From a virus, in the IMG/VR virus record IMGVR_UViG_3300033977_000098, positions 10,637-74,636 of that record: a stretch of 64,000 bases of DNA, one strand, 5' to 3'. Below, in pieces: positions 1 through 12,187 of this stretch. The position numbers and the translations under genes are program-made. The notes under the pieces were generated by a model, which was not told the origin of the DNA, did not search any database, and saw nothing but the letters and a program-made list of their open reading frames with translations. The number at the start of each line of letters is the position of its first letter. Position 1 is the first letter of the stretch.

Positions 1-1154
1 TGCCCGCAGAGCAATCCACCAGGCGCCAACCGGCCGCGCCAGGTTTCGATGTCGCGTTTCAGCTCGTCATATTCGTGGCTGCCGTCCAAAAATACCATAT
101 CGGGACCGTGCGGAGCGGTTAAGCATTCCGTAGCTTCTGCAGGACAGGCTTCAAGAACAGCGACCGCATGGTCTGACCGTTGCGGGCGCACCTTACCATT
201 CAAATTCTCCATATTGACGAGGAAGCGGTCGAAGAGTACGGCGCGATCGGCGGCAGAAAGCGTTGCATCGCGTGGCCCGTTCCAATCGTCGATCGCATGA
301 ACGTGCCCCGGCGTGTTGTCGCCGAGGACGCGCGTGGATCTTCCGAGATAACTGCCGATTTCCACGATACATTGATGCGCCCTGGCTTGTTTGCCCAACC
401 ATGCCAACTCGGTTTCTTCCATCCAGCCGTCAATCTGAATGGCGCGTTCGAGGTTAACGCCGGGATACGTGCGGGCCCGCCACCGCTTCCACGGCAGGCT
501 CTCTTTGGGAAGCTCGTGGACCTTCCCCGTACCGATATCACAGTGCAAACACAACACGGAACTGTCCACCAAGATCCGGCATCCCGCTTCGTGGAGCTTC
601 TGGCAGAAGTATAGGTCCTCCCAGGTTTCCAGGTTGTATTTCACCCCGCCCCACGTGACTGGCTTTTTCTCGAAAGTGAAATAGGGCTTGGCGAGCTTGT
701 CAAACACGCTCATGCGGATGAGGGCGCAGCCCAAGCCGATCTCTTCGACTTCGAAAGTATCGCTCACCGTCCAGTCCCAAAAAGGTCCGTCCCCGGCTTT
801 TTTGAAGACGACCGGCGCCGGCGGGTCCTGCTTCGACACATAGATTCCCGAGACCACGTCAATCTCCGGGTGATTCTCGAGATCATAAATGAGGCGCACT
901 AGGCCGTGGACGGGAGGCACCGTGTCGTCGTCCACAAAGTAGAGGAGGCGGCAGTTCGCAGATTGCGCAGCTTCTACCATCTCGTTACGCGCAATGTCCG
1001 TGCGCTTGCCGACCGTATGAAACCGCAGGATATAAAAATTGGGTGGGTCAGGAAGGCCAGGAACGGAAAGTGCCCACTGGTAGGGAACCGGACGGCCGGA
1101 CAAAGGGACGCAGAAAGCTAATCCGCGCCGCACTTTGTCCGGGTAAACATGCAT
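1..1154 (-). CDS. GT2-like glycosyltransferase fused to class I SAM methyltransferase (Methyltransf_24-like); runs off the window's left edge
   Basis: Hand translation (absent from ORF track): MHVYPDKV...LLYFVDDDT...GLGCALIRMSVF...EDLYFCQKL (GT-A), then IVEIGSYLGRST...DMVFLDGSHEY...LAPGGLLCG. Confidence 0.8.
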   Translation of the reverse strand, partial: MHVYPDKVRRGLAFCVPLSGRPVPYQWALSVPGLPDPPNFYILRFHTVGKRTDIARNEMVEAAQSANCRLLYFVDDDTVPPVHGLVRLIYDLENHPEIDVVSGIYVSKQDPPAPVVFKKAGDGPFWDWTVSDTFEVEEIGLGCALIRMSVFDKLAKPYFTFEKKPVTWGGVKYNLETWEDLYFCQKLHEAGCRILVDSSVLCLHCDIGTGKVHELPKESLPWKRWRARTYPGVNLERAIQIDGWMEETELAWLGKQARAHQCIVEIGSYLGRSTRVLGDNTPGHVHAIDDWNGPRDATLSAADRAVLFDRFLVNMENLNGKVRPQRSDHAVAVLEACPAEATECLTAPHGPDMVFLDGSHEYDELKRDIETWRGRLAPGGLLCG

Positions 1155-1221
1155 TCATGGCCTCGCGCGGCCTTTTGGCCGCGTAGTGTATCTCAGCGGC
1201 GCTTCCCGGCAAACCATAGCT

Positions 1222-1740
1222 TTAGGAGAACGTGATGCCGGTGGCCGCGTCCACAAGGTACCACAGACCGCTGTACGCGCGCAATGTGAAGCTGGCGCCG
1301 GCATTGCCGCTGAACGTAGCCGTGCGCCGCACTCCCGTGGCGCCCACGATCAGCTTACCGGCCGCTGTCGTGACGGTGTGACTGTATCCGCCCACGTCCT
1401 GCACGGTGACCGTTTTCATGTCGTCCGTCCCGGGCGTCGGCGTGGCCAGGGTCGTAGCGTCGGCGGCGGTGGCCGCAATCAAGTTGACGCCGGGGTACGT
1501 GATGGCATCGCCCGTGCCGCTCAGGACGACTTTGGGCGGCATCGTTGCGCCCTGAAAGATGGGGCTCTGCGTGCCGTTGTTGATGCCGTTCTGAAAGCAG
1601 GCCGCTTCCAGGTTGGCAACGCGAATAAAGAAGTCCGTCTCGGTGTTCGCGAGGATGTTTACGCACACCTCGCGCGGCCCCACATACTCCCACCGGAGAT
1701 TCAGTACATCTTCGAGTTTCTTCAGGCGCTTTTCGTTCAT
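1222..1740 (-). CDS. Putative virion structural/head-associated protein
   Basis: Thr/Ala/Gly-rich 172 aa, downstream of the capsid gene, GGAGG RBS. Confidence 0.5.
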   Translation of the reverse strand: MNEKRLKKLEDVLNLRWEYVGPREVCVNILANTETDFFIRVANLEAACFQNGINNGTQSPIFQGATMPPKVVLSGTGDAITYPGVNLIAATAADATTLATPTPGTDDMKTVTVQDVGGYSHTVTTAAGKLIVGATGVRRTATFSGNAGASFTLRAYSGLWYLVDAATGITFS

Positions 1741-2375
1741 GTCTGTCCTCCAAATAGGAATTTCAATTGCTCACTTTCGTCGCTGCCATTCTCAGCGCGC
1801 GCCGGAAACCGCCGCGCGACCAAGCGGCACAGCGCGATGAACTGCTCCTGGGAAAGCTCGAACTTCATTTTGTTGATCGCCGGGTTGCAGGGCACGCAGT
1901 TCTCGAGCGTATAGCCTTTCGTGCTGTCCACACGGTCGATGCCGTTGTACACATATAGATCGCCTGACTTCGTCCTAAATACGTGCGCCGGTGCGAGTCC
2001 CGAATAATAGCATGGCGAACCCGTCAGGCGTCGGAAGTCCTCGTCTGTGATCTCCCAGGCAATGTTCCTTGCGCGTGCGTTCTGCTTGTACTGGCGAATG
2101 AGGTCGCGAAATGCTACGTCCTTCCGATGAGTTCCCGCACGAAGCGGGTTAAGTTGAGCGATCCGCTTTCCTTGCTGGACGTGATAATCGTGGGCGAGAC
2201 ATCCACAGCTCTGGGTCAGCCCAAGCTGAAGGTTCACACCCTTGACGATGCATTTGTTCCGGCACTCGCACTCACATTCCCACAGCGTAAAGTGTCGCTT
2301 GTTGATCCCGGCGAAGCCTACGACCGTGAGTCTTCCAAATTTCTTGCCTCTTAGCTCCAGCCGATGCATAACCAC
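1737..2375 (-). CDS. Free-standing HNH homing endonuclease
   Basis: N-terminal GKKFGRLTVV...WECECEC...SCGC module; C-terminal CYYSG...GIDRVDSTKGYTLENCVPCNPAINKMK. Confidence 0.85.
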   Translation of the reverse strand: MVMHRLELRGKKFGRLTVVGFAGINKRHFTLWECECECRNKCIVKGVNLQLGLTQSCGCLAHDYHVQQGKRIAQLNPLRAGTHRKDVAFRDLIRQYKQNARARNIAWEITDEDFRRLTGSPCYYSGLAPAHVFRTKSGDLYVYNGIDRVDSTKGYTLENCVPCNPAINKMKFELSQEQFIALCRLVARRFPARAENGSDESEQLKFLFGGQT

Positions 2376-2415
2376 CCCGTAGGTGATTATACACCATCCC
2401 GCGCACTAATTATAT

Positions 2416-3960
2416 CTAACTCGAACCAATCCCCGTAAGTACCCCGAGGCCGAACGGGATGTAGTGCTGCAACGTTTCAAAGGCGTACACCCCGACCTGG
2501 TGCTGCAAACGGACATACGGCCAGCGGATCGAGAAGTGGTCCTCAAGCGTTGCAATGCGCCGCACCGCCGGGATGGCGTTGCCAGCCGCCGGATAAGGGT
2601 TGTTGATAAGATCGGCAAGGATCACGCCCTGGGGAATCCAGGGGTGGGTCTGCACGTCGAGCTGCTTCATCTGCCCCGGCCCGTACTTCGAGCGGTAGGC
2701 CACGGCAAACGTGCCGCCCACGACGCGGCCGGCCGTATCTTGCTCCAGGAAGACCCGCATCACGTTGTTGGCGACGCCGGCCCCCAGAACCTTCTTCGAG
2801 AAGGCGTCGATCAGCGTGCCCCCGAGCCAGAACTTGTCGGGCGTGATCTTGTAGTTCAACCAGAAGTAGTCCATCATTGCTTCGATTTCGACGATGGTGC
2901 CGTCGCCGTTCGCGGTCATGTTAGCGCCGCCCAAGTCTTTCCAGTAGGACGGCTTGGTGGCGCTGGCATAAGTCGCTGCCCAAGCGAACAGGCCGGTGAA
3001 GTCCAGGCTGTTGGCCGAGCAGTCGTTGGCCAGAAGGCTGGTGTGGTTCGGCGCGTCCGCCGCCTGATTGGTCGTAGTCGGCGTGGTGGTGACGGTGAGC
3101 GTCGGCGCAGAAGTCTGCGCGTAGAAGTAGCACTGGGAGATAGGCAGCGCGCTTGACCCGGAGCCTGTCCCGATGAACCAGGCGTAACCCAAGGCGCCAG
3201 CCACGGGCGTGACGGAGACCGTGCAGGATGGGCTCCCACTGCTGGCGAGCTGGGTGCTAGCCACGCCCGTGGAGAGAGCCGACGTCCCGCCGTTGATCGT
3301 GTCCGTCGAGCCATCCGCGTTCTGGCGCGTGTACGGCAATGCCACGCCGGTCGCACTGCACATCACGACGCCCCAACCCGTCAGTGCCACGCAATACGCG
3401 GTAACATACTGGCTTTGCAGGGCGGTGGTGGTGCCGCCGGTGGCGTTCGGGGTCAGCGTGGGGGTGGGTCCGGACCCCAACTGAAATCCATTGCCCCCAC
3501 TGCCATCATTGCCGAATAGGATAGCCCGCTCCTCATCGTTCAAGAGCGCGTTGAGCAGCGAGACTTGGGCCAGGCCGATGTTGTCCTCGAACCCCAAGCC
3601 CATTTGCTGCGCAGCGAAGCTGACTTGAGTGTCCTTGCCGAGGAACTTGTAGTTCGCTGCGTAGTTCTTCTCGGTGATCTGCATGACCGCGTTGCGGTTC
3701 CCTTCTGAGAGCATGGGATAGCCGCCTTGGTCTATGGCCGTCACCGCTTTCCAGTTCACCGCCTGGCCTCCGATAATCATGCCGTTGAAGGTGGGCTGAT
3801 AGCGGGGGATGCTCGCCAACAGCGGGTAGATGACGGGGTAAATCGTCTTCGCGGTCGGCTCCAGGTAGTAGAAGTTCAGGCCGGTAACGCTGGAAATTCC
3901 GGTCGTGGTCGCATCCTTGCGCAGCGTTTGGATGGTCTTCAAGACATCTTCGAGTTGCAT
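2416..3960 (-). CDS. Putative major capsid protein
   Basis: 514 aa directly after protease/scaffold, GGAG RBS, head-module synteny. Confidence 0.65.
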   Translation of the reverse strand: MQLEDVLKTIQTLRKDATTTGISSVTGLNFYYLEPTAKTIYPVIYPLLASIPRYQPTFNGMIIGGQAVNWKAVTAIDQGGYPMLSEGNRNAVMQITEKNYAANYKFLGKDTQVSFAAQQMGLGFEDNIGLAQVSLLNALLNDEERAILFGNDGSGGNGFQLGSGPTPTLTPNATGGTTTALQSQYVTAYCVALTGWGVVMCSATGVALPYTRQNADGSTDTINGGTSALSTGVASTQLASSGSPSCTVSVTPVAGALGYAWFIGTGSGSSALPISQCYFYAQTSAPTLTVTTTPTTTNQAADAPNHTSLLANDCSANSLDFTGLFAWAATYASATKPSYWKDLGGANMTANGDGTIVEIEAMMDYFWLNYKITPDKFWLGGTLIDAFSKKVLGAGVANNVMRVFLEQDTAGRVVGGTFAVAYRSKYGPGQMKQLDVQTHPWIPQGVILADLINNPYPAAGNAIPAVRRIATLEDHFSIRWPYVRLQHQVGVYAFETLQHYIPFGLGVLTGIGSS

Positions 3961-4050: not shown

Positions 4051-6588
4051 TTACCGCCCGAGCAGAGCCGCCGCCGGACTGTTCGGCGCCATCAGATGTG
4101 CGGGAACAGGCCCGGCCTTGATGAGCCGCGCGAGCTTCAGTTTGGCGTCGATATCGCCCTGCGTGAGTCCTTTCACAACGTCGTCCTTCGTGGGCTGTGC
4201 CGCGTTGGCACCTGGCGGCACTGCGCCCGTGTCGTTTTCCTTCGGCCCGGCAGGGTGCGTGACGGGCGGCGCCGCCTTGACCAGAACTTGTGTGCGATCA
4301 CCGATCCCGGGCGCCGTACCGCCCGTATTCTCGGGCTCGCCGTACATGGCGATGAAGATTTTGTTCATGTCTTCCAAGCTCTGCTCGCGCGATTTGGCCA
4401 GCTTTTCGTCGAGCAGCTTCACCACGTCTTCCAGAGTGAACGCTTTGTCATTCGGATGCGCCTGGCCCGGATATGCGCCCTGGGTGCCGCCGCCGACCGA
4501 AGTCGGGGCCGGACCTGCGCCCGCGACATCGACGCCGCTGATCGTCTTGCTCGCATCGACGCTGGCACTCGCGCTCGCGCTCTCCGAAACGCTGGCGCTG
4601 CCCACGGCCTTCAAGACGCGATTAATGATGCCAGTGCAGCCGTCCATGTGACCCTTGGCCAACGCGACCGCCCGGGAATGGTGCGCCTTGTGCATCGTAC
4701 CCAGCACTCGCAGGAGATCGCCAGCACTGCGCGCCTTAGCCAATTCTTCCTGTGCCACTTTTTCAAGCTGTTCGAATTCTTCCATGGTTTTGTTCTCCTT
4801 TGCGGCCAGTGCGGCCTTTTCTGCCTGAAGTGCTTCCAGTTCGCGCGTTTCCAGTTCGACTAAACTCGTCATGCAGCCGATGGACTTATCGAGGAGCGCG
4901 GCCACATCTTCCGGATTGTCGCCCTCTTCTGCCGCCGCTGCCTTCAGAAACTCGACGGTGTCGTGGACCTCAGCAAGCTGCTCGGCTGTCCATTCGGCGG
5001 CCTTGCTCATGTCGGGCTCCATGAGGAATTGATACGCCAGGGCGATCTTCTTGGCTTCAGCGGAAACCTCAATCCCGAACTTCTTGGCGGCCGCCCGAAT
5101 ACGCGCCAGCACCTTCGACTCTTGCTCGGAAGGAATGCCTTTATGCTGTCCCCAGCGCGCCAAGGCGTTCCGCACGTGCGCGGCATCGTGAATCGGATAC
5201 TTCCACGTCGCGATGTCGTCGGGGTCCCCGACATAGGCGAAGTCAGAGGCGTGCAGGTCTTTCCCACCCTTCCGTTTCGTCTTGCCCGCTTTGGTGAGTG
5301 CTTCCCAGGCTTTGAGTGCGGCGGTTTCCGGGAGCGGCTTTTCGAGAGCCACGCTGGCTGGGTCGCGCAAGTCCGTCTTGCAGCATTCCGCCTGCGCCGT
5401 GGCAAGTGACGTGTCGCTCAATTCTTTTCCGCACTTCGCGCAGTAAACGGCTTCGCGCTTTCTTACCTTAGCGATGAGCGCCTCGACGCGCGCCAAGTCC
5501 ATGCCGACAGCTTCAGGGGCCATGTGAGCCCCCACGATTGCCGCTAAATCGGCTTTGCCAACTTCTTCATAGGTCTGCCGGACCTCGATGGGATCTCCGA
5601 AGGTGATCTCGCCATCCTTGCCCATCTTGTAAGGGATTTTGTAGGTCTTGCTGTCGCAGTCCACATAGACTTCGGCGTCCGTGAAGTCGCGCATCCAGCA
5701 ATACTTACCGCTAGGCGCCCCCATGTCCATGCCCGACCGTGGGTTGTACTTGTCGCTCACCGCGTCGCGCAGCACGCGCTCTTTCTGTTCGTGGGTCAAC
5801 TCTTCAGCCTTGATGAATTCAGCTTTCAGTGCTGCTTTGATGCCCGCAGCGGCGCATTTGGGGCACATGGTTTCGCTGCCCACGGCCTTGAACGTCTTGC
5901 CGCATTTGGAGCATTTCGTATCGCCGGTGGGCGCAGGCTGAATTGTGCCGTCAGGTCCGACCGTAACGCCGCTTCCTGGAGTTTGTCCGTAGGGCGGAGG
6001 GACGACAGGCTTCGCTCCTTCCTCGGGCACCGGGGGGAGGCCCCCAACGCTAGCGACTTGCGCCTTCTTGAATTCGCGCTGTTCGCTCATGCCATTCGCC
6101 TTGACCAATTCGAAGCGCGCTTCCTTGAGACAAGGCGAGTCCACAAGAGAGATTTCGCCGGGCTTTGCCGTGTACCAGGTGTATTCGCGGGTTTGTTTCG
6201 TGGCCGGATCGGTGTACGGCGCGCGCCAAGTCTTCACGTAATTGCCGCCCTGAGAGAAGCCAGTGTAAACACCTTCCATCACCTTCTTCCAGGCGTCGTC
6301 GTCCACGACCTTGAAGCCCATGGCGATCTGTCTATTGGCATCGCGGAAGTCAATGGATTTCCCCACTCCTGCGGCTTTGAGCTGATGCATTTCCCGCAAG
6401 GGCGCGATGGACTTTCCATCCGTGGCCTTACTAAATTCTTCATTCATGTCTTTGTAGTAGGGTACGGTGGAGGTGTAGTGGAGAACCTCATCATCGCGGT
6501 CGGGCCGTTCGCCAGTCACGACGCCATAGACAGTGCGCGTCGCTTCGTCTACTTTGGCAAGCGGCCAGAATTTTCGGAAGTTCAACAT
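4051..6588 (-). CDS. Prohead protease/scaffold multidomain protein
   Basis: Protease-like N-terminus (RTVYGVVT...LREMHQ...YTGFSQGG...EISLVDSPC), CxxC zinc ribbons, DFAYVGDPDD...WKYPIHDAAHVRNALAR module, helical C-terminus. Confidence 0.75.
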   Translation of the reverse strand: MLNFRKFWPLAKVDEATRTVYGVVTGERPDRDDEVLHYTSTVPYYKDMNEEFSKATDGKSIAPLREMHQLKAAGVGKSIDFRDANRQIAMGFKVVDDDAWKKVMEGVYTGFSQGGNYVKTWRAPYTDPATKQTREYTWYTAKPGEISLVDSPCLKEARFELVKANGMSEQREFKKAQVASVGGLPPVPEEGAKPVVPPPYGQTPGSGVTVGPDGTIQPAPTGDTKCSKCGKTFKAVGSETMCPKCAAAGIKAALKAEFIKAEELTHEQKERVLRDAVSDKYNPRSGMDMGAPSGKYCWMRDFTDAEVYVDCDSKTYKIPYKMGKDGEITFGDPIEVRQTYEEVGKADLAAIVGAHMAPEAVGMDLARVEALIAKVRKREAVYCAKCGKELSDTSLATAQAECCKTDLRDPASVALEKPLPETAALKAWEALTKAGKTKRKGGKDLHASDFAYVGDPDDIATWKYPIHDAAHVRNALARWGQHKGIPSEQESKVLARIRAAAKKFGIEVSAEAKKIALAYQFLMEPDMSKAAEWTAEQLAEVHDTVEFLKAAAAEEGDNPEDVAALLDKSIGCMTSLVELETRELEALQAEKAALAAKENKTMEEFEQLEKVAQEELAKARSAGDLLRVLGTMHKAHHSRAVALAKGHMDGCTGIINRVLKAVGSASVSESASASASVDASKTISGVDVAGAGPAPTSVGGGTQGAYPGQAHPNDKAFTLEDVVKLLDEKLAKSREQSLEDMNKIFIAMYGEPENTGGTAPGIGDRTQVLVKAAPPVTHPAGPKENDTGAVPPGANAAQPTKDDVVKGLTQGDIDAKLKLARLIKAGPVPAHLMAPNSPAAALLGR

Positions 6589-6691
6589 GAGCCTCCGGCA
6601 CCAGACAAAAGTTAGGAAACCGGATTTGAGGCGTCAAGACTTTTTTTATTGATTCCGTGGAAAAGTGCTATACTCGGGAGAGAGTGAAGCT

Positions 6692-6993: not shown

Positions 6994-9900
6994 TCACCCG
7001 GCTTCGGGCGCTTTTTGTCCAATCATGCTGGCAGGGCCCTGCTCGATTACGCCCGCGTCATTGATGAACACATGCGCGCCACGAATGGTCACCCAGCCCT
7101 TGCCCAAGGCTTTGTTGAAACTGACCGCAATGACGGCGCAATCGCAGTTCTTGACCACAATACCGCCTATGTTGTATATATGAGAAGTGGTGGATGCGTC
7201 AAAAGCCCAGCCATGAAATCGCCCAACTTGAGTCTGAAGAATTCGCGCCGCCTTAAAGAACGGTGGTCCCGGTTCACAGCAGAGCAGCGCAAGATCATCC
7301 TGGCACCCGCTCACGCCGCTGCCAGCGTTGCCAACAGGGCTCGCATGAAAGAATTTTGGCGCACTGCTACGCTCAGCCAACGTCGAAAGATGCTTGAACC
7401 TGCCCACGCTGCTGCGCGCGGTCGCAAAGAACGCCTGGAATCCAAGTTGGCACGTGCCGCAACTCGCTACATGCGCGCCGTCGGGATAGGCCCCCGAGAG
7501 CGGGCATTTGCAAAGATGCTCAAGTTCGCTGGAATCAAGTTCCGACAGCAAACTCCTTGCGGGCCTTACAGCTTGGACTTCACCATAGACGAAAGTTTCG
7601 TCGCCGTGGAAATACGAACGGGGAGCAGCAACAAACGAGTAGCCAAAGCGGCCGCGCAGAGACTCAAAAGCGTCCTGGATCAATGGCACCTGTTCGAGGT
7701 TCGGTTCCATAGCGGGCATCCTCGCCGATTCCATGCGCATGTCATAAAGCAACTCGTCACCTTTCTTCAGTTCGTGCGCAAACAAGAAACCACGGCAGGT
7801 CAACATTGGGTGGTTAGGCCCGATGGTCAGTTTTATCCGTTCCGAGCCTATGGGCCGCGTAGGCCAGCCGTGATCACCAGGGAGCAATTGGCGCTCGTCG
7901 AGCGCCTCTTTAAGCTTAACGTCTCGTTGCGGAACATCCGTCGTGAAACTGGAGTAGCTCGGCGACGACTGCCCGCAGTTCTCAGCCAACTCCAGCTCCA
8001 GCGCAATCGCGGGGCCGTGGTATGGCGCACCAAGCATTTGCTGAAGTCTGCCATAGGGCGCAAAAACTGAGCCTTCAAATACCGCGTTGGGATGTGCCGG
8101 GGGGGCCTCTACGTCCACGCCAGGGAAGGTTTCGCCTAGCGAAACGACCTCTCCATTCGCATCCTTACAGTCATCGCACGTGTTGGGCTCAACCGAAGTC
8201 TGCCATTGAAGTTTTTTTACTACCCCGCTGTCTTTCCAGACATCATAGTTCGCGTGGCATTGGGCGCGTGCGACCTCGGTGCGGGCAATCATCTCGGCGC
8301 GGGAATCAGAGAACGCGCCCGCCTCGCGGATTTGCTCGATAAGGTCGGGCATTGGAGTTTCTTTGCCGAAAGCATCCGTCACGATGCTGCGGAGATCGTC
8401 CCGCGTGGTATCACTGATGGCCCACTTCGCGTCGGCATTCTCGACGAACGTCCCATCTTCCAGTTTGTGCATTCCCACCAGTTCGGCCGCGCGTTCATCC
8501 GCCCAATCTTGTGCGCCTTGGTTCAGGGCAGAGATCATGTCGTCGTCCGTCAAGTCCAGTTCAGCTACACCTTTCCCGATGCCTGCGAACGCGGCGTGTC
8601 GCAGCGGGGGCGCTGCCTCCATTGGGATCTCGCCGAAAAGTTCCTGAAGCGCCTCGAAAATCGCATCTGCGATGTTGATGGCGTCATCGTCCTGCTTAGC
8701 CAAATCGAACTCCTCGATTTTCTTTTTTCCATTCTTAAAGGGGATAGTGCGGATGCGCTCGAAATCATCCGGGTCCGCCTGGCGCGCCCGATAACTGGAA
8801 TCTGTTTCCTGAATCTCCGTTTTGAAGTCATGGTCCTTCAGCCATGCGCGCACATCTTCTTTTGTCCACGCATCCTTCGGCATGAAGAGGATCGACTGCG
8901 CCTCTGTCCGCCCACCTTCCGGACCCTTTTCGGAAGGCTTGCGAACGCCCACCGTTGCCGAAATGCGCCGCGCCGCTTTCCCGAAGCCATCCACAATCAG
9001 GGCGTGCACCATCTCATCATGGACCTTCAGCAAGCGGTCAGCCTTTTCCTTGGCGCGGTCGCGCTGCCGGCGAAAAACTTTCTTGATAATTTCTGCCAGC
9101 TCGCGCTCCGCTTCCTGGAGGGCGGGCGTGGAATGCGAGGGGTCGATTTTGATGTTGGCCGCCTTCGCTAGTGGCAGGGAGCGGCTCTTAGTGGAAACGC
9201 TTGGTGCTTTGTCAATTAACTCGTCGCACGTCCCGCACTTGAATTGGCGCACTTGCTCATCGGCTGGCCCGAAATCGTTGCAGCAGCCCAGCTCCTTTGA
9301 GACACCACCTTTGACATAGACGGTTTTGCAATCGGCGTCTTTGACGGCACCTGGGAACTCCATGTACCCGGCGTCTTCTTCAGGCTTGCGAGAATCGCGT
9401 TTGAGAATCGTAAGCGTCTGCGCGCCACCAGTGGCTTTCCAATACGGTTGGAAATTCTTGACCGCCTCGATGAATTCCGGCGTCCACTCGCCCAGGAACT
9501 GGGTGGCTTTGTCGTCCACAAACTCGTGCGCCATGACCGGCTTGACGTTCGTGATGTCCAGTACGTAGGCGCTCGCCTTGTTTTGTTGCAGCGCCACCCA
9601 CACGGGTCCGAAGTCTGTCCGCGCTGTGAAGATCAAGATATCAAAATCCTTAGACAACTCCCGCAGGGCGTCCACGGCGCCGTCGATAAACTCCGTGATC
9701 GCCGTCGGGTCGTCGGGGTCGCCGACTTGAATGGTGGAATCGAAGTCGAGGCAGAGAAGGGGCTTTTGCAGCAAATCGGTTAGCGCCTTGACGAGTTCGC
9801 GCTCATAGGCGGCTGTCGGCATTTGCTGCAAGCCTTCATGTTTCACATAAACATTAGCATTGCTCAACTCCGTTGGCAAATCCTCTTCCACGATAAGGCT

Positions 9901-10818
9901 GTCCGACGCGATGGCAATGCCATCGGCCCGCACCAATAAGTTGGCGAGGTTGGTAAGTGTGTTCCGCACATCAGCGCTCACGTTGCCCTGCGCCGCAAAC
10001 AGCGCCGCCTTGCGTAACGCTTCAGGGTCCGTGCTGTACCCCTGGTCGCAGAACTTCTGTAGTTCGCTGGGCCCCTCGCCAACCGCCGCGCAGAGGTCAG
10101 ACCAGCCTCTACCTGAAGCCAGCGGACCTACGTAGTCAGTGCCGAACAATGATATACTCATCGGTATCCACCTCATCGACCTTACTGGACAGCGGTTTGG
10201 TAAGCTCGTCGTTCTGCGACGGAGCCCGAAGCTGGTAGCGTATGGTTCGCTTTGGGAGTGTCTCTGTGACCATCGTCTCCATCCTCTTGGATGCCTCGGC
10301 AGGCCATAAACCTGGAAGATGCGAACCACAGTTATTTCCGTGCGCCTAATACGCTTAGCAACCTGCTTCAACGTGAGACCCGCCATGTAGAGCTGGTGCA
10401 TCGGCCGCACGACCTCGATGGGCCACAACGTTGTGCGGCGGCGATTCAGGCGCGGACCGCGCGAGCCAGTCGGACGTCTCTCTACGCCGAATCGCCGCAA
10501 TGCATACAAAATCGCAGTATGATGGACGCCATACCGGTCCGCAAGCTGGTGAAGCGTCCAACCTTTCCGGTAAAGCTGCGCGCATTCCTGTAACGGCACT
10601 GTGGCGTGAAACGGGCGTATGGGAAAGCCGTTGCGCGCGAAGAGCTGACGGACCCGTTCGCGGGACAGGCCGATGCGCCGCGCCACTTCCGCGACCGTGA
10701 GCCCTGCGACGTGAAGCCGATGCAGCTTTCGGATGTGCTCTGTGGTCCATCTTCGAGCATGTTCACTTCGCATCGGGATTCTCCAAAAAGCTACCATCAT
10801 CAAGTTTGTGTAGAGCAA
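6994..10818 (-). CDS. Multidomain MuF (SPP1 gp7-like) head morphogenesis protein with HAD domain and intein; the N-terminal HTH part may be a fused separate gene (alternative start 10161)
   Basis: RAEMIARTEVARA...WQTS...CDDC...PPAHPN|intein|CDC; HAD motifs LCLDFDSTI, IFTART, KP...FVDDKA; three HTH-like repeats at N-terminus. Confidence 0.8.
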   Translation of the reverse strand: MLYTNLMMVAFWRIPMRSEHARRWTTEHIRKLHRLHVAGLTVAEVARRIGLSRERVRQLFARNGFPIRPFHATVPLQECAQLYRKGWTLHQLADRYGVHHTAILYALRRFGVERRPTGSRGPRLNRRRTTLWPIEVVRPMHQLYMAGLTLKQVAKRIRRTEITVVRIFQVYGLPRHPRGWRRWSQRHSQSEPYATSFGLRRRTTSLPNRCPVRSMRWIPMSISLFGTDYVGPLASGRGWSDLCAAVGEGPSELQKFCDQGYSTDPEALRKAALFAAQGNVSADVRNTLTNLANLLVRADGIAIASDSLIVEEDLPTELSNANVYVKHEGLQQMPTAAYERELVKALTDLLQKPLLCLDFDSTIQVGDPDDPTAITEFIDGAVDALRELSKDFDILIFTARTDFGPVWVALQQNKASAYVLDITNVKPVMAHEFVDDKATQFLGEWTPEFIEAVKNFQPYWKATGGAQTLTILKRDSRKPEEDAGYMEFPGAVKDADCKTVYVKGGVSKELGCCNDFGPADEQVRQFKCGTCDELIDKAPSVSTKSRSLPLAKAANIKIDPSHSTPALQEAERELAEIIKKVFRRQRDRAKEKADRLLKVHDEMVHALIVDGFGKAARRISATVGVRKPSEKGPEGGRTEAQSILFMPKDAWTKEDVRAWLKDHDFKTEIQETDSSYRARQADPDDFERIRTIPFKNGKKKIEEFDLAKQDDDAINIADAIFEALQELFGEIPMEAAPPLRHAAFAGIGKGVAELDLTDDDMISALNQGAQDWADERAAELVGMHKLEDGTFVENADAKWAISDTTRDDLRSIVTDAFGKETPMPDLIEQIREAGAFSDSRAEMIARTEVARAQCHANYDVWKDSGVVKKLQWQTSVEPNTCDDCKDANGEVVSLGETFPGVDVEAPPAHPNAVFEGSVFAPYGRLQQMLGAPYHGPAIALELELAENCGQSSPSYSSFTTDVPQRDVKLKEALDERQLLPGDHGWPTRPIGSERIKLTIGPNHPMLTCRGFLFAHELKKGDELLYDMRMESARMPAMEPNLEQVPLIQDAFESLRGRFGYSFVAAPRSYFHGDETFVYGEVQAVRPARSLLSELDSSELEHLCKCPLSGAYPDGAHVASCGTCQLGFQAFFATARSSVGRFKHLSTLAERSSAPKFFHASPVGNAGSGVSGCQDDLALLCCEPGPPFFKAARILQTQVGRFHGWAFDASTTSHIYNIGGIVVKNCDCAVIAVSFNKALGKGWVTIRGAHVFINDAGVIEQGPASMIGQKAPEAG
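7147..8085 (-). mobile_element. Intein (313 aa) in MuF with atypical Ala1 and Lys-Asn end, Cys+1
   Basis: Interrupts the HPN|CxC motif; block B-like LTIGPNHPMLT and ELKKGDEL; blocks F/G-like FHGWAFDAST...GGIVVKN/C. Confidence 0.8.
7213..8070 (+). CDS. DUF559/Vsr-like endonuclease encoded antisense inside the MuF intein
   Basis: GPRERAFAKML...FRQQTPCGPYSLDFTIDESFVAVEI resembles the DUF559 pattern; basic tandem repeat at N-terminus, HTH-like C-terminus; start and stop both inside the intein. Confidence 0.75.
   Translation: MKSPNLSLKNSRRLKERWSRFTAEQRKIILAPAHAAASVANRARMKEFWRTATLSQRRKMLEPAHAAARGRKERLESKLARAATRYMRAVGIGPRERAFAKMLKFAGIKFRQQTPCGPYSLDFTIDESFVAVEIRTGSSNKRVAKAAAQRLKSVLDQWHLFEVRFHSGHPRRFHAHVIKQLVTFLQFVRKQETTAGQHWVVRPDGQFYPFRAYGPRRPAVITREQLALVERLFKLNVSLRNIRRETGVARRRLPAVLSQLQLQRNRGAVVWRTKHLLKSAIGRKN
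10172..10309 (+). pseudogene. Remnant of an HNH-type homing endonuclease N-terminus, antisense within the MuF ORF
   Basis: LIDLTGQRFGKLVVLRRS...LWECLCDH, the same module as the N-terminus of 1737-2375; ends without a nuclease domain. Confidence 0.6.
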
Positions 10819-12187
10819 ACGGCGATGTGATTTTGCTGATAAATGCCCGAAGCTGCTTGAGGTTTTTGAGCGGGGTCATCTGCCCTATTCGGAACGCCCC
10901 CATGCCTTCGTGCACGAATATCTTTTCACCCCCCCCTCGGTTGTCGATGAGTACGCAATAGCCTTTCGCACGATTCTGCGTCAGGTCTTCTAGCTTTCTC
11001 TCTCGGCATTCTGGCCGCATGTTGATGCGCACGTTCGTCAGCTTCTTGCCCAACAGCGTCTTGACCTCAAGCCCGACCTTACCGCCCCCGGCGCGCACGT
11101 AGATATCGAGGGGGGAATTGTCTGGTGTGCGCTCACCGCCTACCGCCTCCGCAACGCGCTGTTCGTTCGCATCCGCCTTGCGCTGGTGCGCCTTCAAGGC
11201 CGGCTTGAAGTTCTTAAGCGCGGCCGTGCACTTGTCGGCAACCAGCGAGCCATCTGGCTTGAGCTGGTGGCCTACCATGCTGTGGGGGCCGTGCGTGATG
11301 CGCCCAGCCTCGTCGATAAACACGTGGGCACCGCGGATCGTGACCCAGCCTTTACTAACTGGTTGCGGCGCCGCGCCCTCTGTCCATCGTCCGTGCTCAT
11401 CACGCGGCTGGTCCGGCGAATACTTGCTCAAGCTTTCCCACGCTGTTAACGCCTTGTTCACGCCGAAGCGTGCGCCAATAGCGTCGCGCCGGCCGATGAG
11501 CGCGTTCGCGTATTTCCCGGACAGCCCAGCTTCGTTCACTAGCTCGCGGATCGTGTCGTCATCAAGGGTGGCGACGAGGTGTTGCGCCTGGGCTTGCAAT
11601 TCGTCATCAGTGAACCCCGCAAATATTGGTGCCGCATCAGGCGCCGTTTCCCGGTCCCGCATTGAATCAATCTCCGGGACTATTATTGCTGAAACGTCCT
11701 TATCCTGGCCTTGGGCTCGGAACGCGAACGTGCTTCCATTGTCGATGCGCAGATCGCGGCCATCAACACGTAGGATATTGCGGCCGCTGCTGCCGATGAC
11801 ATCGTGGTTAGCAAGGAGACAATCTGTAAGAAACCCGTCGCGCACGTCGGGGCTTTCGGCCAGTTCGTCACTGTCCAACTGTTCGCCTTCGACCATCTTG
11901 CCCGCGATGCCCAGGCCGCTCGCCTCGCCCCACCCGGCGTGGCCGGAAACGAGCTGCTTCTCTGGGACCGGCAATCCTACCGTGCGGTAAACCAGCGTCG
12001 CCAATAGTTCGGCGCGAGATTGCTCAGGGTCAAGCTGAGGGAACTTGACGTACCACTGCTGTCCGCTCTCGTCCTCGTAGACGCCGCCAGGATTTGAGCC
12101 TTTGTGCTGGCTGACGTGCCACCAGGAAGCAATGGACTCAGGTGCGCTCGCCTTGGTGAGCGTTCCGGCAATGAGAGAAGCGTCCAA
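10763..12187 (-). CDS. PI3/4-kinase/HipA-like kinase fused to PD-(D/E)XK nuclease
   Basis: GSNPGG...YVKF...AELLA...DCLLANHDVIG...RIDNG; linker YSPDQPRDEHGRWT and GWVTIRGAHVFI; C-terminal E...PLDI...LEVKT. Confidence 0.7.
   Translation of the reverse strand: MDASLIAGTLTKASAPESIASWWHVSQHKGSNPGGVYEDESGQQWYVKFPQLDPEQSRAELLATLVYRTVGLPVPEKQLVSGHAGWGEASGLGIAGKMVEGEQLDSDELAESPDVRDGFLTDCLLANHDVIGSSGRNILRVDGRDLRIDNGSTFAFRAQGQDKDVSAIIVPEIDSMRDRETAPDAAPIFAGFTDDELQAQAQHLVATLDDDTIRELVNEAGLSGKYANALIGRRDAIGARFGVNKALTAWESLSKYSPDQPRDEHGRWTEGAAPQPVSKGWVTIRGAHVFIDEAGRITHGPHSMVGHQLKPDGSLVADKCTAALKNFKPALKAHQRKADANEQRVAEAVGGERTPDNSPLDIYVRAGGGKVGLEVKTLLGKKLTNVRINMRPECRERKLEDLTQNRAKGYCVLIDNRGGGEKIFVHEGMGAFRIGQMTPLKNLKQLRAFISKITSPFALHKLDDGSFLENPDAK

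Follow-up and report, generated by a model that had tools for sequence, protein, structure and literature searches.

The stretch analysed here, which we call the window, comprises 64,000 nucleotides (nt) of the IMG/VR virus record IMGVR_UViG_3300033977_000098 (positions 10,637 to 74,636), a 74.6-kb viral contig with a guanine-plus-cytosine (GC) content of 56.6%. On its minus strand, an open reading frame (ORF) of 1274 codons (6994-10818) encodes a multidomain MuF protein, recognised by a match of its residues 814-911 to the Pfam model Phage_Mu_F (PF04233, E 1e-11) and by matches to several PHROG head-morphogenesis families. The Pfam model ends at the residue just before an in-frame insert that interrupts the MuF motif HPN/CxC (the slash marks the insertion point), and a second ORF lies within this insert on the opposite strand. 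We consider it very probable that the MuF protein of this uncultivated phage is interrupted at HPN/CxC by an unsplit intein, and that the endonuclease slot of this intein holds an antisense, codon-aligned gene for a Vsr-like homing endonuclease. The features of the locus are listed below, with minus-strand residues numbered in the intein and plus-strand residues in the antisense protein (AF2, AlphaFold2; pLDDT, predicted local distance difference test; HTH, helix-turn-helix; aa, amino acids).

6994-7146, minus: MuF C-extein, from CDCAVIAV... to the stop, completing the HPN-CxC motif (translation).
7147-8085, minus: intein of 313 residues splitting the MuF motif HPN/CxC, here HPN/CDC (translation; Hint-fold model; intein-less relative).
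7147-7254, minus: Hint C-lobe, blocks F and G, residues 278-313, AFDAST...GIVVKN (pLDDT 86-96; invariant G292, D296, G308, N313; minus strand constrained).
7213-8070, plus: antisense ORF, putative Vsr-like (DUF559-fold) homing endonuclease, 285 aa plus stop (DUF559 match; 657 relatives; AF2 model; tblastn match to REQ3).
7243-7428, plus: tandem 31-residue basic helical repeat, residues 11-72, W..T..QR....PAHAA (helices 8-29, 32-51 and 54-70 in the model).
7483-7812, plus: nuclease core, residues 91-200 (invariant residues; Vsr-fold match; plus strand constrained), with E96 at 7498-7500, Q113 at 7549-7551, D122 at 7576-7578, E133 at 7609-7611 and R150 at 7660-7662.
7579-7611, both strands: doubly constrained stretch of 11 codons, F123-T124...V130-A131-V132-E133 on plus and (F/L)159-H160-G161-D162...G168-E169 on minus.
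7726-7842, minus: Hint block B (TIGPNHP, His92) and N4 (KGDELLYD), residues 82-120 (invariant G89, H92, P93, T96, G99, D110, Y114, D115; minus strand constrained).
7843-7986, minus: Hint N-lobe insertion, residues 34-81, predicted disordered, antisense of the HTH-like domain (plus strand constrained).
7861-7998, plus: C-terminal three-helix HTH-like domain, residues about 214/217-262 (pLDDT 87-93; helices 223-234, 239-246, 250-259).
7987-8085, minus: Hint N-lobe, block A region, residues 1-33 (pLDDT 91-96; minus-strand third codon position most variable).
8086-8379, minus: MuF domain of the N-extein, ending ...PPAHPN (PF04233, E 1e-11; PHROG head-morphogenesis matches).

The translated junctions read PPAHPN / A-V-F-E-G-S ... 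I-V-V-K-N / C-D-C, and the limits of the intein given in an earlier reading of the letters alone (hereafter the original prediction) are exact. The insert is in frame, sits in a conserved host motif and is missing from a homologue, L023 (IMGVR_UViG_3300014160_000003, 779-3121, plus strand), a portal-MuF fusion 52% identical to the window MuF N-extein that reads HPGCRC and has no intein. With its motif uninterrupted, L023 therefore represents a natural intein-free allele of the target site. Residue 1 of the window intein is Ala, the +1 residue is Cys, the C-terminal residue is Asn313 and the penultimate residue (312) is Lys; both a class 1 nucleophile (Cys, Ser or Thr at residue 1) and a penultimate His are missing. 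Class 3 inteins, as Tori et al. reportedly defined them in 2010, carry a WCT triplet (Trp B12, Cys F4, Thr G5). The corresponding window positions are Met94, Asp296 (the block F position) and Val311, none of them the class 3 residue. Having Ala1 and Cys+1 and no WCT triplet, the window intein therefore fits a class 2-like (KlbA-type) Ala1 intein rather than class 3, as judged from these residues.

Pfam models for Hint, LAGLIDADG and HNH found no match in the sense frame, in agreement with the original prediction that the interior holds neither of the latter two motifs, and a search of the ESM Atlas with the sense segment returned sub-threshold intein-like leads only. The AF2 model of the sense frame, built with 14 sense-frame relatives, superimposes on the Mtu RecA mini-intein over 107 residues (Z 10.7, root mean square deviation 1.8 A), and 52 intein, Hedgehog and bacterial intein-like (Hint) chains reach Z>=8 against it. 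By its modelled structure, the sense frame is a real intein with a Hint fold. Residues H92 (block B), Y114-D115 (N4), D296 (block F), N313 and Cys+1 are invariant in the 14-row sense alignment. The model is confident for residues 1-33, 81-119, 131-190 and 277-313, and pLDDT falls below 50 for 37-80, 120-131 and 227-273. The 48-residue insertion in the N-lobe is carried only by the window and its relatives L005-L009, being missing from the other relatives in the sense alignment.

The plus-strand ORF runs from ATG 7213 to TGA 8068-8070, entirely inside the intein, its stop 15 nt before the N-terminal splice junction, exactly as first described. Its codons share exact triplets with the sense codons, and it runs through the antisense of block B. 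All the motifs quoted in the original prediction are present, namely the E..F...FRQQTPCGPYSLDF...VAVEI core and the basic repeats (residues 18-37 and 49-68). A word-indexed protein search with this ORF gave no match, and phmmer searches of both frames against the PDB sequences were uninformative. An exhaustive HMMER search of 1.84 billion representatives returned 657 relatives of the plus-strand protein at E<=1e-3, 102 of them at E<=1e-10. Pfam aligns plus residues 104-180 with positions 29-103 of the 109 in DUF559 (PF04480); the score of 21.2 bits is marginal against a gathering cutoff of 20.6, and the close relatives P0004 and P0005 fall under the threshold. E96, Q113, D122, E133 and R150 are invariant in a 36-member family alignment, and the window protein has all five.

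With this alignment as input, the AF2 model of the plus-strand protein reaches a mean pLDDT of 85.4, exceeding 90 for residues 41-200. In structural comparisons (VIA), it matches Vsr endonuclease 1cw0_A (Z 11.3, 112 residues, 2.7 A), the DUF559-like protein NGO0050 3hrl (Z 10.8, 88 residues, 2.1 A) and the catalytic domain of I-Bth0305I, 3r3p_A (Z 10.3, 93 of 97 residues, 2.7 A); searched by sequence against the PDB, the family profile finds the last two (3hrl E 1.4e-4, 3r3p E 4.6e-3). The predicted Vsr fold bears out the first reading of this ORF as Vsr-like, and the model supports a real gene for a nuclease of Vsr/DUF559 fold. The original prediction took the absence of ExDGxxH as a reason to doubt activity, a doubt that loses its force in that the whole family is without this motif and keeps the five invariant residues. 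The N-terminal basic repeats, of which there are two copies in the window, one in L005-L009 and three in L011, are probably a DNA-binding module. For the HTH-like segment suspected at the C-terminus, the three-helix model resembles the GcrA DNA-binding domain (Z 5.8, 48 aa, 2.0 A) and the HTH of Tc3 transposase (Z 5.2, 1.5-1.8 A). Pfam gave no significant HTH or NUMOD model in the plus-strand protein, and in its relatives the matches are weak (HTH_7 E 0.034, HTH_28 E 0.12).

The same arrangement recurs in other phages. By tblastn, the plus-strand protein finds the Rhodococcus phage REQ3 (6e-27), fourteen Pseudomonas vB_Pae phages (6e-9), Cronobacter phage ES2 (9e-8) and Gordonia phages (8e-4), in every case antisense to the annotated MuF gene, and a scan of IMG/VR added 16 further loci. 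The antisense protein gives better E values than the sense protein (6e-27 versus 8e-20 in REQ3, 6e-9 versus 2e-5 in Pseudomonas). Both frames are open and codon-aligned in 20 of the 20 related loci, and the insertion is always at the N/C.C motif of MuF. The GenBank records of REQ3 (L001, NC_016654.1), vB_Pae (L002, MK511015.1), ES2 (L003, JF314845.1) and Gordonia phage Fosterous (L004, NC_055775.1) annotate the MuF gene only, leaving unannotated the antisense ORFs of 181-280 codons, combining HTH and nuclease, inside their inteins. The inteins of ES2, vB_Pae and Fosterous occupy the same N/CxC site and begin with Cys1 (class 1); L017, the REQ3 record in the IMG/VR scan, has the same Ala1 ... 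N/C junctions as the window. A search for nuclease-less relatives of the intein gave 12 hits, full-length forms only. In a scan of 185,579 prokaryote genomes, one 40-residue fragment was found and no free-standing or cellular copy was identified. This fragment, which resembles the nuclease core (E 3e-7), lies at 3001-3120 of L021 (JAFEEQ010000021.1, a metagenome-assembled genome assigned to Proteobacteria), and may be a prophage remnant.

An ORF in this register could be a mere shadow, the plus frame being open only because the codon-aligned antisense of a GC-rich gene rarely has stops. The original prediction warned that such ORFs are frequent, and rightly so: opposite the 15 other, ordinary genes of the window there are four more such codon-aligned runs, of 304-399 codons, one of them adjoining the intein (8206-9171, plus, 321 codons). 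A further shadow ORF of 274 codons, likewise opposite an ordinary gene, lies at 5791-6615 (plus). TTA, CTA and TCA together make up 1.7% of codons in the window phage. Since such runs occur opposite ordinary genes, the length of the plus ORF is uninformative and was ruled out as evidence; GC by codon phase was also discarded, since GC1 nearly equals GC3 in this phage and the measure does not separate the frames. What decides against a shadow is of another kind. The plus frame belongs to a large protein family with a confident Vsr-fold model and a DUF559 match, its strand shows a constraint of its own (below), and a ribosome-binding site precedes the gene in relatives. The number of plus-frame stops to be expected by chance follows from the Leu and Ser codon usage of each phage: about 6 in the window, where none is seen (P 0.002), and 13-16 in the relatives of 44-45% GC, where again none is seen; among the relatives, P falls as low as 3e-9. 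The antisense frame is therefore kept open, and no antisense stop was found in any related locus examined. The proposal of an unsplit MuF intein that harbours, in antisense, a gene for a nuclease of Vsr/DUF559 fold is thus supported, the gene being conserved and stop-free in every one of these loci. We regard the shadow explanation as having next to no chance of being correct.

The same statistics, applied to the other strand, bear on a different rival, in which MuF would be a "fractured gene": a split intein would join two separately made MuF halves, the nuclease gene would stand free between the halves, and the continuity of the sense frame would be accidental. Precedent favours this, as it was between the halves of split inteins that Vsr-like endonuclease genes first came to light (Dassa et al. 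2009, as cited in later papers). However, no interruption breaks the sense frame, either in the window or in 20 of 20 loci, conserved sense residues lie inside the insert, and the nuclease gene avoids the codons TTA, CTA and TCA, which would be stops in the sense frame (P down to 2e-8). The numbers of these codons expected in the plus-strand gene are given below; in each case none is seen.

Window: 4.75 expected, P 0.006.
ES2: 5.9 expected, P 0.001.
L014 (45% GC): 6.9 expected, P 2e-4.
L010 (44% GC): 10.5 expected, P 1.5e-6.
L009 (44% GC): 13.2 expected, P 3.5e-8.
L005 (45% GC): 14.1 expected, P 1.9e-8.

This avoidance of sense stops within the nuclease gene indicates that the host frame is read through and that the intein is unsplit, and a fractured gene is accordingly a highly implausible description of the locus. 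Together with the essential nature of the host gene, it also points to protein splicing of the window intein: MuF would be translated through the whole insert, from which the intein would then be removed.

To assess which strand is under selection in each part of the intein, we aligned the codons of the window with those of L005-L009, its five closest relatives (about 50% identical in protein), and compared the divergence at the two outer codon positions, with intervals from a column bootstrap. Where the third codon position of the minus strand is the most variable, the minus strand is constrained, and the reverse holds for the plus strand. The differences (95% bootstrap intervals) are as follows.

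Blocks F and G: minus strand constrained, -0.42 to -0.11.
N4 and block B: minus strand constrained, -0.22 to -0.02.
Block A: minus strand, with the sign of the other Hint blocks and an interval that just takes in zero, -0.30 to +0.02.
Nuclease core: plus strand constrained, +0.058 to +0.166.
HTH-like segment: plus strand constrained, +0.067 to +0.218.
Linker with the plus-strand N-terminus: neither strand, not distinguishable from zero.

Selection thus alternates by strand, acting on the minus strand in the Hint blocks and on the plus strand in the nuclease core and the HTH-like domain. A finer map from 12 diverse loci agrees with this mosaic, and the stretch from 7117 to 7656 is the only one in which codon-usage log-odds favour the plus frame. 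Opposite the HTH-like domain lies the N-lobe insertion, predicted disordered, that only this subclade carries; the antisense gene therefore has a second selected segment inside the splicing domain.

The sense interior had been said to read like a shadow translation. No Pfam model matches the frame, but the description fails for residues 131-190, which are predicted with pLDDT 76-95 and carry invariant residues, including the HGD...GE motif of the minus strand; one outcome that the original prediction named as refuting it, a sense interior matching a real domain, has to this extent come partly true. Within the 11 codons at 7579-7611, both outer codon positions diverge little. On the minus strand, H160, G161, D162 and G168 are invariant in 16 loci and E169 is Glu in 15 of the 16, with all five invariant in the 14-row sense alignment; on the plus strand, D122, A131, V132 and E133 are invariant across 16 loci. 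The stretch thus coincides with the invariant metal-site residues of the nuclease, D122 lying beside it and E133 within it. Plus codons 130-132 read RTC GCC GTG in 18 loci that range from 44 to 68% GC, being fixed even at the plus-strand wobble position, with the lone exception of one ATG (Met on plus) that is synonymous on minus, as are the V/I changes at 130. Where the minus-strand residue is fixed, the plus-strand residue varies only as the register permits (T/A/S at 124, V/I at 130, F/L/I at 123). This part of the sense "filler" is thus conserved in its own right. It may have a part in folding, or it may make up, in Asn cyclisation, for the two histidines that this intein lacks in block F and at the penultimate position, with His160 as a candidate for replacing both. 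The overlap could then be more than a nuclease hidden in filler, the sense HGD...GE being itself needed by the intein and the nuclease gene having extended into the splicing domain by way of an HTH opposite a new loop. We put this forward tentatively, as a possibility that we would not favour on present odds. If true, two enzymes would share active-site codons on opposite strands, each constraining the evolution of the other.

Translation signals for the antisense gene are present in relatives. GGAGG stands 4-9 nt upstream of the ATG in L005-L009 (4 nt), L010 and L015. In L005-L009, about 20 nt upstream of the start of the plus ORF, the conserved residues H-K-T-S that immediately precede block F on the sense strand are encoded by the reverse complement of GGAGG(T)TTT ATG, and the ribosome-binding site and start codon are therefore written into the protein sequence of the intein. 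The original prediction had the nuclease expressed independently of the late gene, and here the window does not bear it out, as it offers neither a promoter-like site nor a ribosome-binding site for this gene. The letters of the weak promoter-like match are where they were said to be:

7151-7180, plus: TTGACC-N18-TATATA, weak promoter-like match, not supported (present in the sequence, unreported by the sigma-70 consensus scan).

Several observations weigh against reading the window gene as that of a working homing endonuclease. No Shine-Dalgarno sequence precedes ATG 7213, though other genes of the window phage have one, and the sigma-70 consensus scan returned 0 sites. The near-invariant N120 of the family is Ser in the window. 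The contrast in the nuclease core (+0.11) is weaker than that in the Hint blocks (-0.27), which fits dual constraint but would also fit relaxed selection. The family lacks the catalytic His (H213/H69) and the second Asp (D222/D97) of its structural relatives, these positions falling on non-conserved residues in an alignment made only between the 3r3p sequence and the family profile, and the nuclease chemistry is therefore uncertain. A free-standing member of the family was not found in the searches described above.

The first of these observations suggest a silent or decaying relic in the window phage alone, with the intein now vertically inherited and the plus frame open through recent history. 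Some VSR-like cases do look vertically inherited (bioRxiv 10.1101/2025.01.02.630785), and the missing ribosome-binding site, where relatives have GGAGG, and the N120S change are the reasons for which we keep this explanation in consideration, as an unlikely one that nevertheless deserves some weight. Against it, all 285 codons are intact with the five invariant residues in place, the absence of plus-strand stops in the window is improbable by chance, and when the window is compared with its relatives, there is still more change at plus-strand wobble positions in both the core and the HTH-like domain.

The loss of the Vsr/EDxHD His and Asp, along with the elaborate DNA-binding modules, would instead suit a protein that is no longer, or never was, a homing enzyme and that binds or nicks DNA, for example in regulation or in competition between phages. 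Distribution speaks against such a role: in every locus whose DNA was inspected, the antisense nuclease is found only inside MuF inteins and at one insertion site, an intein-free allele exists in a relative, and two clusters have a distribution consistent with horizontal transfer (bioRxiv 10.1101/2025.01.02.630785). We judge a role other than homing to be improbable, more so than decay in the window phage. On the reading that we prefer, an antisense homing endonuclease gene in an unsplit intein, the nuclease would be made separately from MuF and would cut intein-less MuF alleles near HPN/CxC during co-infection, whereupon repair would copy the intein and the nuclease gene into the cut allele. 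The location of the gene, together with an existing intein-free allele such as L023, is consistent with cleavage of the element-free allele.

Other parts of the MuF ORF and its neighbourhood also deserve mention. The first ~200 codons of the ORF (10200-10818, minus) encode three HTH repeats (Pfam HTH_23, Sigma70_r4), at the start of which stands an ATG with an upstream GGAG. Their PHROG matches are annotated as DNA-binding protein and HNH endonuclease, and they resemble the N-terminal HTH modules of the antisense nucleases of relatives. ORF residues ~346-443 (9500-9800, minus) match phrog_1238 ("phosphoheptose isomerase", E 1.4e-5). The motif GWVTIRGAHVFI..AG.I..GP.SM.G occurs both at the MuF C-extein (7000-7100, minus) and inside the neighbouring 474-aa protein (ORF 10763-12187, minus).

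Although the original prediction implied novelty, the kind of element found here has already been described. A survey of actinophage inteins by Gosselin, Arsenault and Gogarten (bioRxiv 10.1101/2025.01.02.630785) reports anti-sense VSR-like endonucleases in inteins of minor-capsid (MuF) proteins, with REQ3 among its examples and the REQ3 intein assigned to class 3; it links these proteins to 3R3P by HHpred, and proposes that a free-standing endonuclease gene invaded the intein. The first antisense endonuclease genes in inteins became known in 1998, and the preprint cites antisense LAGLIDADG cases from that year and from 2002. The window shares with the cases of the survey the host family, the unsplit intein and the antisense VSR-like ORF, and REQ3 is a direct homologue (6e-27). 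In contrast to those cases, the window comes from an uncultivated phage outside that survey, and Pseudomonas and Cronobacter phages carry the element as well; the window ORF takes up nearly all of the intein, passes through block B and has an additional C-terminal HTH-like domain, and its N-terminal module is a basic repeat rather than an HTH. The window intein also differs from the class 3 assignment given to REQ3, in that it is not class 3 by the WCT definition.

The locus therefore provides no new principle, its kind being covered by the 2025 preprint, but it does show that antisense-encoded homing endonucleases in inteins reach beyond actinophages, and it points to an unannotated gene in GenBank records of Pseudomonas, Cronobacter, Gordonia and Rhodococcus phages and in metagenomic phages. 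Annotation rules that allow one frame per locus miss such genes. The locus further offers a clean natural example of dual coding on opposite strands over a long stretch (~850 nt), where the action of selection can be followed from codon to codon. For the biology of inteins, it favours the idea that mini-inteins are invaded by free-standing endonuclease genes, which then become locked in, in this instance with remodelling of the splicing domain.

Among the known nucleases, I-Bth0305I defines the EDxHD family by a Glu, Asp196, His213 and Asp222 (PMC3239194). The window family shares with I-Bth0305I and Vsr the nuclease fold, the helix Glu (E96), the metal-binding Asp (D122, which aligns with position 196 of 3r3p and corresponds to I-Bth0305I D196 and Vsr D51) and the attachment of modular DNA-binding regions. 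It differs in having no counterparts of His213/His69 and Asp222/Asp97, with E133 and R150 instead. Keeping the Glu and the Asp and lacking the counterparts of His213 and Asp222, the family is therefore of Vsr fold but apparently not a strict member of EDxHD. I-Bth0305I itself is encoded on the sense strand of a group I intron. DUF559 (PF04480), with NGO0050 (3HRL), is the best sequence-profile relative of the window family, but carries the motif E.DG..H where the window family reads VAVE(I/V)..G.GN.

With regard to architecture, fractured genes (Dassa et al. 2009, as cited in PMC3239194) likewise have a Vsr-like endonuclease as a separate ORF in the endonuclease slot of an intein, whereas in the continuous intein of the window the nuclease gene lies antisense in codon register, with a codon choice that leaves the host frame open. 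The antisense LAGLIDADG ORF of Synechocystis DnaX (Gorbalenya 1998, as cited in the 2025 preprint) is also an opposite-strand endonuclease gene within a functional intein, but there both the nuclease family and the host gene are other than those of the window. What sets the window locus apart from these systems is an antisense ORF of nearly the full length of the intein, an HTH-like domain opposite an insertion in the splicing lobe, N-terminal basic repeats, and the interleaving of the HGD...GE codons of the intein with the D...E codons of the nuclease.

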